Source: a virus (Duplodnaviria; Heunggongvirae; Uroviricota; Caudoviricetes). From it: DNA of 5,046 nt. This document shows, one piece after another, positions 127-363 of the stretch. Numbering within the stretch: position 1 is the first letter of the stretch; every line of letters starts with the position of its first letter. The DNA is taken from the IMG/VR virus record IMGVR_UViG_2703718811_000010; one strand, 5' to 3'. The notes under the pieces were generated by a model that searched no databases, had not been told where the DNA came from, and saw only the letters and a list, made by a program, of their open reading frames with translations. The position numbers and the translations under genes are program-made.

Positions 127-157
127 TGTCTCACCCTTTACTGTGATAACTGTTACG

Positions 158-190
158 CACAAAAACAACAGGCATCCCGGAGGGTGCCTG
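158..190 (-). terminator. Candidate rho-independent terminator on the minus strand between I and J
   Basis: Minus-strand reading gives CAGGCA-CCCTCCGGGA-TGCCTG (GC-rich stem, plus coords 169-190) followed by TTGTTTTTGTG (plus 158-168). On the plus strand the same hairpin lacks a T-run. Confidence 0.4.
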
Positions 191-228
191 CATCATGACG
201 GAATAAAAATTCTGAATATCTTCACATT

Positions 229-256
229 TTCACAAACTGCCTGTGGCGCTGATAAT
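229..256 (+). promoter_or_regulatory. Sigma70-like promoter candidate (TTCACA - 16 bp - GATAAT)
   Basis: -35 TTCACA at 229-234 and -10 GATAAT at 251-256 with a 16-bp spacer; predicted start near 263. No ORF follows before the terminator at 327-358. Confidence 0.35.
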
Positions 257-262
257 TGCGCA

Positions 263-358
263 GCGTTACAGTTTTTTCGGGTCAATAAAAACAAAACTCC
301 TTTGTGGTTAATCTTCATTGTCTGTTCCCGCAGCCTCCATACACTGCGGGATTTTTTT
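263..358 (+). ncRNA. Candidate small RNA of about 95 nt, defined only by promoter plus terminator with no ORF
   Basis: Lies between the promoter candidate at 229-256 and the plus-strand terminator at 327-358; no ATG-initiated ORF of meaningful length on the plus strand. Purely structural inference. Confidence 0.25.
327..358 (+). terminator. Rho-independent terminator on the plus strand
   Basis: Stem CCCGCAG (327-333) / CTGCGGG (344-350), 10-nt loop, then A + T7 (352-358). The minus-strand version has no U-tract, so it is plus-strand specific. Confidence 0.5.
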
Positions 359-363
359 ATGCT

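Follow-up and report, generated by a model that had tools for sequence, protein, structure and literature searches.

A probable Hfq-dependent small RNA gene of the PasB/EcOnc22-24 family in the I-J spacer of a defective lambdoid prophage

Two sets of small RNAs (sRNAs) encoded by prophages of pathogenic Escherichia coli are the closest described relatives of the element reported here, a promoter-to-terminator unit in the spacer between tail genes I and J of a 5,046-nucleotide (nt) stretch of Caudoviricetes DNA (IMG/VR record IMGVR_UViG_2703718811_000010; this whole stretch is called the window below). In enteropathogenic E. coli (EPEC) O127:H6 E2348/69, prophage PP6 encodes PasB, an 83-nt RNA located on the minus strand between E2348C_1436 and E2348C_1437 (NC_011601.1, 1466343->1466261; Pearl Mizrahi et al. 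2021, PMC8550237 Table S6). [quoted passage not shown] In enterohaemorrhagic E. coli (EHEC) O157:H7 Sakai, EcOnc22, EcOnc23 and EcOnc24 are homologous peaks from Hfq cross-linking and analysis of cDNA (Hfq-CRAC) on the plus strand of prophages Sp15, Sp14 and Sp11, respectively (Tree et al. 2014, PMC4104026 Table S2). The corresponding RNA is approximately 85 nt long on a northern blot and is destabilised in a delta-hfq strain (PMC4104026 Table S2), and the targets of EcOnc22-24 were given as unknown in a 2021 review. A seed located immediately upstream of the terminator has been proposed for PasB in a recent preprint; its survey, which relied on a stringent BLAST search, came to the conclusion that PasB is largely absent from EPEC and EHEC and shows little variation (Zhu, Shabalina and Storz 2026). 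PasB is not linked to EcOnc22-24 in PMC8550237 Table S6 or in the 2026 preprint.

The genomic positions of these RNAs agree with each other and with that of the window unit. In RefSeq, E2348C_1436 and E2348C_1437 are tail assembly protein I, which ends at 1466255, and J, which starts at 1466496, both on the plus strand; PasB is therefore encoded between I and J on the strand opposite to these genes, and its terminator adjoins the I stop codon. In the current Sakai record, all three EcOnc22-24 peaks fall inside I-J spacers, with the tail genes on the minus strand. The published Sakai coordinates refer to an older genome version, and the AgvB gene, used as a landmark, gives a shift of approximately +128 to +146 nt, which places the peaks on the sRNA body. 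Additionally, each of the three Sakai spacers contains an exact match to GTTAATCTTCATCGTTCTCTCCC, the final 23 nt of the sequence targeted by the EcOnc22/23/24 northern probe, at a place homologous to window positions 305-330; the full 33-nt probe has no exact match in Sakai, where only this 23-nt core is found. In the window, I and J are both encoded on the minus strand and the I-J spacer covers positions 127-363 (237 nt); it is bounded by TAA, the stop codon of I, at 366-364(-) and by a J-like start codon, ATG, at 126-124(-). The window unit and PasB have the same position and orientation, and the two spacers can be aligned over their whole length. Based on the evidence presented below, we propose that positions 229-358 on the plus strand very probably constitute a self-contained gene for an Hfq-dependent sRNA of the PasB/EcOnc22-24 family, inserted in the manner of a moron between the I stop codon and a hairpin that precedes J. 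Its parts are as follows:

207-228, plus strand: highly conserved block with a CRP-like site, upstream of and overlapping the -35 region (from conservation and direct reading)
229-256, plus strand: sigma-70 promoter of the sRNA, with -35 box TTCACA at 229-234, 16-nt spacing and -10 box GATAAT at 251-256 (10/12 match)
258-358, plus strand: PasB-family sRNA gene (covariance-model match), with its 3' end in the U7 tract at 352-358
305-325, plus strand: unpaired, conserved stretch (GGUUAAUCUUCAUUGUCUGUU) that borders the terminator on its 5' side, a candidate pairing seed (from the conservation profile and the alignment)
326-358, plus strand: intrinsic terminator and likely Hfq-binding 3' module, with stem 326-333/344-351, loop 334-343 and U7 at 352-358

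The RNA region is 75% identical to PasB of E2348/69 and 95% identical to a related type that is common in EHEC, which we refer to as the EHEC type. Homology to the described RNAs was assessed with a covariance model, R1, built from 13 PasB-type and EcOnc22-type sequences and leaving out the window-type and EHEC-type rows. R1 matches window 258-358 with 63.5 bits (E = 1.1e-10) and has no match in the I-J region of lambda. A scan of the whole window with Rfam gave no match in the spacer, since PasB is not in Rfam. The window unit and PasB have in common the antisense position between the I stop codon and J, the promoter layout, the stem CCCGCAG/CUGCGGG with a U7 tail, a AUCUUCAUU(U)GUCUGU block and a similar length, whereas they differ in the 5' body, in the terminator loop and in the -10 box, which is TATAAT in PasB and GATAAT in the window. 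Similarly, EcOnc22/23/24 resemble the window unit in their location in the I-J spacer on the antisense strand, in GUUAAUCUUCAU and in the terminator, but not in the 5' body and the promoter-proximal sequence. The window unit therefore has three of the features by which a member of this family can be recognised: the antisense position at the I-J junction, sequence and structural homology, its own promoter and U-tail terminator and a length of approximately 80-100 nt.

The first-pass annotation of this DNA had described a plus-strand promoter that leads to a terminator without an open reading frame (ORF), and this part of it is borne out, the unit being autonomous. A promoter scan found 2 sites per 1 kb where 0.7 were expected, so that the motif is weak when taken alone; the promoter is credible because it is kept in relatives and not because of its motif score. 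Among 58 unique relatives, the ATAAT core and the -35 region are conserved. Most of these relatives have the -10 box TATAAT, and the G at position 251 is specific to the window type. The CRP-like site AATTCTGA-N6-TCACATTT (AATTCTGAATATCTTCACATTT) has a perfect right half, is nearly invariant in relatives and is centred at position 218.5, approximately 43-44 bp upstream of the predicted sRNA start. Judging from its sequence and position, this site may activate the sRNA promoter, and the higher level of PasB in static overnight LB than in DMEM would fit such a role. The start of the RNA predicted from the -10 box is at approximately 262-264, and the stretch homologous to the annotated 83-nt PasB covers positions 277-358. 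The predicted RNA is hence 95-97 nt long when counted from the promoter and 82 nt when counted from the annotated PasB 5' end. The terminator, separated from the I stop codon by 5 nt, folds with -13.9 kcal/mol (z = -4.3; none of 200 shuffled sequences folds as well). A simple terminator scan missed this hairpin as well as the minus-strand hairpin described below, due to a loop of more than 8 nt or a stem mismatch, and both were therefore folded directly. Among 23 variants, no consensus helix is seen other than that of the terminator, in which a single compensatory change turns G-C into A-U; none covers positions 305-325.

To define which parts of the unit are kept, we used a family sample of 169 copies (40 unique RNA sequences), for which the promoter block and not the RNA served as the anchor. 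Conserved are the -35 region, the ATAAT -10 core, a GCGTTA motif, a U-run, AACUCC, UUAAUCUUCAU, the terminator stem and the U-tail; variable are the 5' body and the loop of the terminator. This pattern, in which the promoter boxes, the U-run, an AAUCUUC block and the terminator are fixed and the 5' body is variable, fits a non-coding RNA, and the layout is the usual build of an Hfq-dependent sRNA with an unpaired seed 5' of its terminator. In the relatives, the RNA is made in lysogens, is approximately 83-85 nt long, is bound by Hfq and is destabilised without it, and approximately 37 RNA partners have been recovered as chimeras in EPEC. By analogy, we infer that the window RNA depends on Hfq and pairs in trans. 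In this strain, the RNA would be made, independently of the phage late promoter, from its own conserved promoter (TTCACA-16-GATAAT), which reads away from J toward I, and the intrinsic terminator, a GC stem of 7-8 bp followed by U7, would end it 5 nt before I. Hfq would then bind the 3' hairpin and the U-tail, and the RNA could pair with host and prophage mRNAs via the unpaired UUAAUCUUCAUUGUCUGU and possibly ACUCC. Late transcripts coming from the opposite direction would be carried through the hairpin before J by Q-modified polymerase, and the RNA might have an extra cis effect on the complementary I-J part of the late mRNA.

From their sequences, PasB, EcOnc22-24 and the unannotated EHEC type appear to be one family. 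Within it, the window copy is a mosaic with a PasB-like promoter region and an EHEC-like body. Types related to the window copy are common: of 5,426 complete E. coli genomes, 567 carry the window/EHEC type, the median number of copies being 3, and no copy is annotated in RefSeq. Approximately 470 of these 567 genomes have a version that is at least 90% identical to the window gene, and the identical 101-nt gene is found in 8 genomes; strain 2014C-3061 is a carrier of the latter. The bacterial search of the 2026 preprint used blastn with a word size of 28 and more than 75% coverage; as the longest exact run common to the window type and PasB is 17 nt, that search cannot detect the window type. 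The finding is thus real and mostly already known, the window copy being a new sequence variant of the PasB/EcOnc22-24 family; modestly new are the mosaic variant and the uniting of PasB, EcOnc22-24 and the unannotated EHEC type. This links three things that were treated separately in PMC8550237, PMC4104026 and the 2026 preprint, namely PasB in EPEC, EcOnc22-24 in EHEC and the unannotated EHEC-type copy. The approximately 470 genomes with copies that are at least 90% identical, often several in each, suggest that the family is larger and more varied than was found in the 2026 survey. What looked like an oddity of a tail operon becomes a defined and testable gene, and for annotation the lesson is to call the sRNA a gene and not the short ORF opposite to it.

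Beyond E. coli, a 31-nt promoter-block pattern had no matches in species-representative genomes, and a gapped pattern found only E. albertii and one contaminated Streptomyces contig in the same set. This result fits a distribution restricted to Escherichia and adds little diversity. The contig in question, a 3.4-kb piece assigned to 'Streptomyces flavalbus' (NZ_JBHTEB010000006.1), carries a PasB-family gene at 2172-2272 (107.8 bits), which is almost certainly E. coli prophage DNA present as contamination. We also observed that approximately one quarter of the collected spacers, the 'u0' type, have a longer J-proximal part, with the J start approximately 208 nt past the promoter block compared to approximately 105 nt in the others. 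These spacers contain a different, bidirectional-looking hairpin (AAAACCCCGGUAUC..GAUACCGGGGUUUCUCUUU) and a possible short ORF starting from ATGCCATTACCGG.

Several points weigh against the assignment of the window unit as an active sRNA gene of this family. Expression has been shown in relatives only. At the first position of the -10 box, the window has a G where most relatives have a T, and with an altered -10 box in a defective prophage, the gene could be weakly expressed or decaying. The promoter-derived start at approximately 263 gives an RNA of approximately 96 nt compared to the 83-85 nt reported for relatives, which points either to RNA processing or to mapped 5' ends that are approximate. 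Structural covariation amounts to one base pair in one sequence, and the support for the plus-strand and the minus-strand hairpin comes mainly from conservation and folding energy. R1 also matches weakly elsewhere in the window (29.7 and 23.2 bits), indicating that the model tolerates other AU-rich RNAs ending in a terminator. The link between the EcOnc22-24 peaks and the sRNA body depends on the inferred coordinate shift, although the probe match supports this link independently. Lastly, the targets of PasB and EcOnc22-24 are uncharacterised, and the trans-pairing step is thus inferred.

A broader version of the proposal would treat PasB, EcOnc22-24, the EHEC type and the window type as one modular family, in which recombination among co-resident prophages exchanges the 5' body and the loop but leaves the promoter block, the AAUCUUC core and the terminator unchanged. 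In addition, the CRP-like site would switch the unit on, and the position opposite the I-J junction would also let the RNA cut or silence leaky tail transcripts. The combination of a PasB-like promoter and an EHEC-like body in the window is the pattern expected under such swapping. We consider this combined model to be fairly unlikely in its entirety; if it were true, lambdoid prophages would retarget a host-regulating RNA in much the same way as they swap tail fibres.

The junction at which the sRNA gene is located carries a further conserved element on the tail-gene strand:

191-168 followed by 167-157, minus strand: hairpin with a U-rich tail, just upstream of the J ribosome-binding site (from folding), a generic pre-J terminator-like element

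This hairpin folds with -15.1 kcal/mol (z = -2.3). Of 170 copies, 125 have kept it; among the remaining 45, a different hairpin with a U-tract occupies this place in 41. On the tail-gene strand, its seventh base pair is C-G, U-A or U.G among variants and a C.A mismatch in the window; covariation of the hairpin is not significant, its score being attained by 100 of 500 shuffles as well. Unrelated I-J spacers (lambda 15445-15504, mEp460, PhiR49_2, a Serratia phage and a Klebsiella phage) likewise contain a GC-rich hairpin with U's after it just upstream of the J ribosome-binding site, and in the Klebsiella phage record it was labelled as a terminator by the depositor. Its presence in phages with unrelated spacers indicates that it is an older feature of the I-J junction and not part of the sRNA gene, and the sRNA module (approximately 191-363) is located between the I stop codon and this hairpin. 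To our knowledge, a conserved pre-J hairpin of lambda-like phages inside the Q-antiterminated late operon has not been discussed. Late transcription of lambdoid phages is antiterminated by Q, and the hairpin should therefore not limit J in lytic growth. The suggestion of the first-pass annotation that a terminator on this strand lowers J expression is hence unlikely to hold for lytic growth, and its reading of the hairpin as the end of the minus-strand ORF gives way to that of a generic pre-J feature of lambda-like phages.

One might speculate that the RNA acts in cis, by triggering RNase III cleavage, by dampening leaky expression of the tail genes in lysogens or by tuning the I:J ratio after induction. 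The sRNA gene is always found at the I-J junction and always in antisense orientation, the junction also keeps the terminator-like hairpin on the tail-gene strand and, by geometry, the RNA is perfectly complementary to the I-J intercistronic part of the late transcript. However, the RNA overlaps neither the I coding sequence, from which it is separated by 5 nt, nor the J ribosome-binding site, which is more than 120 nt away, and the 37 RIL-seq partners of PasB are located elsewhere in the genome. Moreover, the sRNA gene is intact in the window prophage even though approximately 14 kb of head and tail genes have been lost and J is a fragment, and the constant position of the gene might simply reflect a permissive insertion site. 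A cis role is compatible with a role in trans; as the main function of the RNA, we regard it as unlikely.

It is likewise improbable that the unit is a silent relic, that is, a decaying sRNA gene in a defective prophage. Such decay is suggested by the -10 box GATAAT in place of the family consensus TATAAT, by the nu1-I deletion and the disrupted J of this prophage and by the C.A mismatch in the sense-strand hairpin of this variant. On the other hand, the terminator, the U-tract, the seed-like block and the -35 box are all intact, and identical and near-identical copies are present in the other genomes listed above.

The remaining alternatives concern the strand opposite to the sRNA:

318->193, minus strand: 41-codon ORF, fortuitous and not a gene

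If this ORF were the cargo of a small-protein moron, the hairpin at 191-157 would be its terminator and the plus-strand RNA would be incidental. The hairpin and U-tract do follow the ORF after approximately 2 nt on the same strand, a 41-amino-acid (aa) version is retained in a few relatives and a hypothetical protein is annotated at this place in some phage records. Nevertheless, we consider this highly unlikely. The 5-kb window contains 50 ORFs of at least 30 aa, and a frame of 41 aa is thus no more than expected by chance. The frame is broken in most close relatives, an outcome which the first-pass annotation itself had named as counting against it: of 75 unique spacers, 6 (13 of 167 copies) keep it intact, and in the others it is shortened, shifted in frame or devoid of a start codon. 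In the PasB type, it is cut to 22 aa by a stop codon that the TATAAT box on the opposite strand creates, in the EHEC type the frame is lost after six codons owing to a deletion of 1 nt, and in 14 unique variants the start codon is absent. There is no third-position excess in the ORF (variability by codon position, 0.18/0.24/0.20), and a promoter scan found no minus-strand promoter for it. The peptide has no credible match in Pfam or PHROGs, a single Pfam match below the threshold (14 bits, with the cut-off at 27) having been disregarded. Its putative ribosome-binding site lies inside the PasB terminator stem, and the conserved C-terminal 'ENVKIFRIFIPS' coincides with the conserved promoter block and only mirrors it. 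With a broken frame in most relatives, no codon periodicity and no family, the ORF was rejected as a gene; it arises as a by-product of the other strand.

That the plus-strand RNA represses a toxic minus-strand peptide, as in a type I toxin-antitoxin pair, is hardly credible: the RNA would indeed be complementary to the first ~19 codons of the ORF (overlap 263-318, by geometry), but the peptide is neither conserved nor hydrophobic (best 15-aa Kyte-Doolittle mean 0.93; grand average of hydropathy 0.25), the related RNA is found in RIL-seq mostly in chimeras with other transcripts, and the Rfam families searched, including those of toxin-antitoxin RNAs, have no match in the spacer. The same features set the window apart from loci such as hok/sok, ldr/rdl and ibs/sib, in which a short ORF is overlapped by an antisense RNA: the window has no conserved or hydrophobic peptide, its frame is broken in relatives and its related RNA has been recovered with many other transcripts. 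The ORF, the promoter, the plus-strand terminator and the minus-strand hairpin are all present where the first-pass annotation had placed them, and its caution that the peptide was not convincingly hydrophobic was justified. In contrast, its likening of the locus to a type I toxin-antitoxin pair does not agree with an Hfq-dependent RNA family that has many RIL-seq partners, and the elements it had called convergent belong to two units that lie back-to-back.

The sRNA gene can also be compared with other prophage cargo. The lambdoid morons bor and lom (Juhala et al. 2000) likewise consist of extra AT-rich DNA, located between genes that adjoin each other in relatives, with their own promoter and terminator and are expressed from the prophage. 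They carry protein-coding genes, whereas the cargo of the window would be a non-coding RNA read against the late operon. The likeness to a moron drawn in the first-pass annotation is apt as far as extra DNA, an own promoter and terminator and a deviant composition are concerned (GC content of 0.40 for 191-363 compared to 0.59 for I), but not for a protein-coding cargo. The anti-sRNAs AgvB and AsxR of EHEC prophages (RF02702, RF02703) are also short, Hfq-binding prophage RNAs encoded at moron-type positions, the 3' part being conserved and the 5' part variable. Unlike the window unit, they are located downstream of PR' near the stx/lysis region and not at the I-J junction, and they are 51-60 nt long. 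Identity with AgvB or AsxR was considered and rejected, as RF02702 and RF02703 have no match in the spacer at E <= 1; as a positive control, both were applied to Sakai, where AgvB was detected.

The window represents part of a defective lambdoid prophage; lysozyme, Rz, a P22-type antirepressor, Nu1 and I are identified in it by Pfam. The spacer is flanked by two tail-gene remnants:

364-942, minus strand: tail assembly gene I (Pfam Lambda_tail_I), the 5' end of which was lost by a deletion joining I to nu1
1-126, minus strand: 5' fragment of J, with its start at 126 and the ribosome-binding site AAAGGGTGA at 139-131

The I-J gap measures 60 bp in lambda, mEp460 and PhiR49_2 compared to 237 bp in the window. 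The first-pass annotation was thus correct in describing extra DNA at positions 127-363 with respect to lambda. The insertion is, however, not unique to this locus, and the comparison of I-J spacers among lambdoid prophages that it had called for does find it elsewhere. With a 301-nt spacer query, matches were obtained in 1,733 of the 5,426 complete E. coli genomes (query coverage of 80% or more in 668 of them, and as many as 11 matching places in one genome) and in 147 phage records, mostly of Shiga toxin (Stx)-converting phages. Judged by these matches, the spacer is a widespread module and not a local event.

The translation of the J fragment (MGKGGGKGHTPVEAKDNLKSTQ) matches J in 264 phage records. 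Window positions 1-956 are 99.2% identical to strain ST866, in which I is complete and approximately 15 kb, occupied by a full head and tail operon, separate the nu1 and I pieces. The deletion junction in the window is at 943-956, where nu1 (terminase small subunit), lacking its 3' end, meets I, lacking its 5' end, and approximately 14 nt match both sides; a search with the full window did not find this junction in any complete E. coli genome of the collection. The J fragment next to the spacer consists of 114 nt of the 5' end, and window positions 1-13 already diverge from J. In ST866, this 114-nt J start is duplicated: the fragment is followed by an AT-rich insert of approximately 800 bp and then by a second J start that leads into a frameshifted J. 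The insert, which contains a 172-aa ORF without a Pfam match and its own terminator, is another moron-type insertion flanked by a duplication.

Two further sRNA-like units are present on the plus strand of the window. The first, at 2091-2184 between Rz and nu1, is antisense to the late genes and would give an RNA of approximately 60 nt. It has the promoter GTCACA-16-AATAAT and the terminator ACUGCUGUG..CACAGCAGU followed by U8, and its homologue in Sakai is the Sp10 sequence covered by the Hfq-CRAC peak EcOnc11 (EcOnc10/11/12 family). This unit has AAUCUUC in common with the seed-like block of PasB and is a weak match to the PasB model (23.2 bits). The second, at 2719-2823, is a promoter-to-terminator unit without an ORF (TTGAAA-16-GATAAT, stem CCUGCCG..CGGCAGG, then U8; predicted RNA of approximately 70 nt), which the PasB model matches with 29.7 bits (E ~3e-4) and which has no Rfam match; its terminator is at the position held by the EcOnc11 terminator in Sakai. 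Lastly, a tandem heptamer, TGACAAC, is repeated approximately five times at 1903-1940 and spans the end of a DUF3950 ORF (1756-1917, plus strand).

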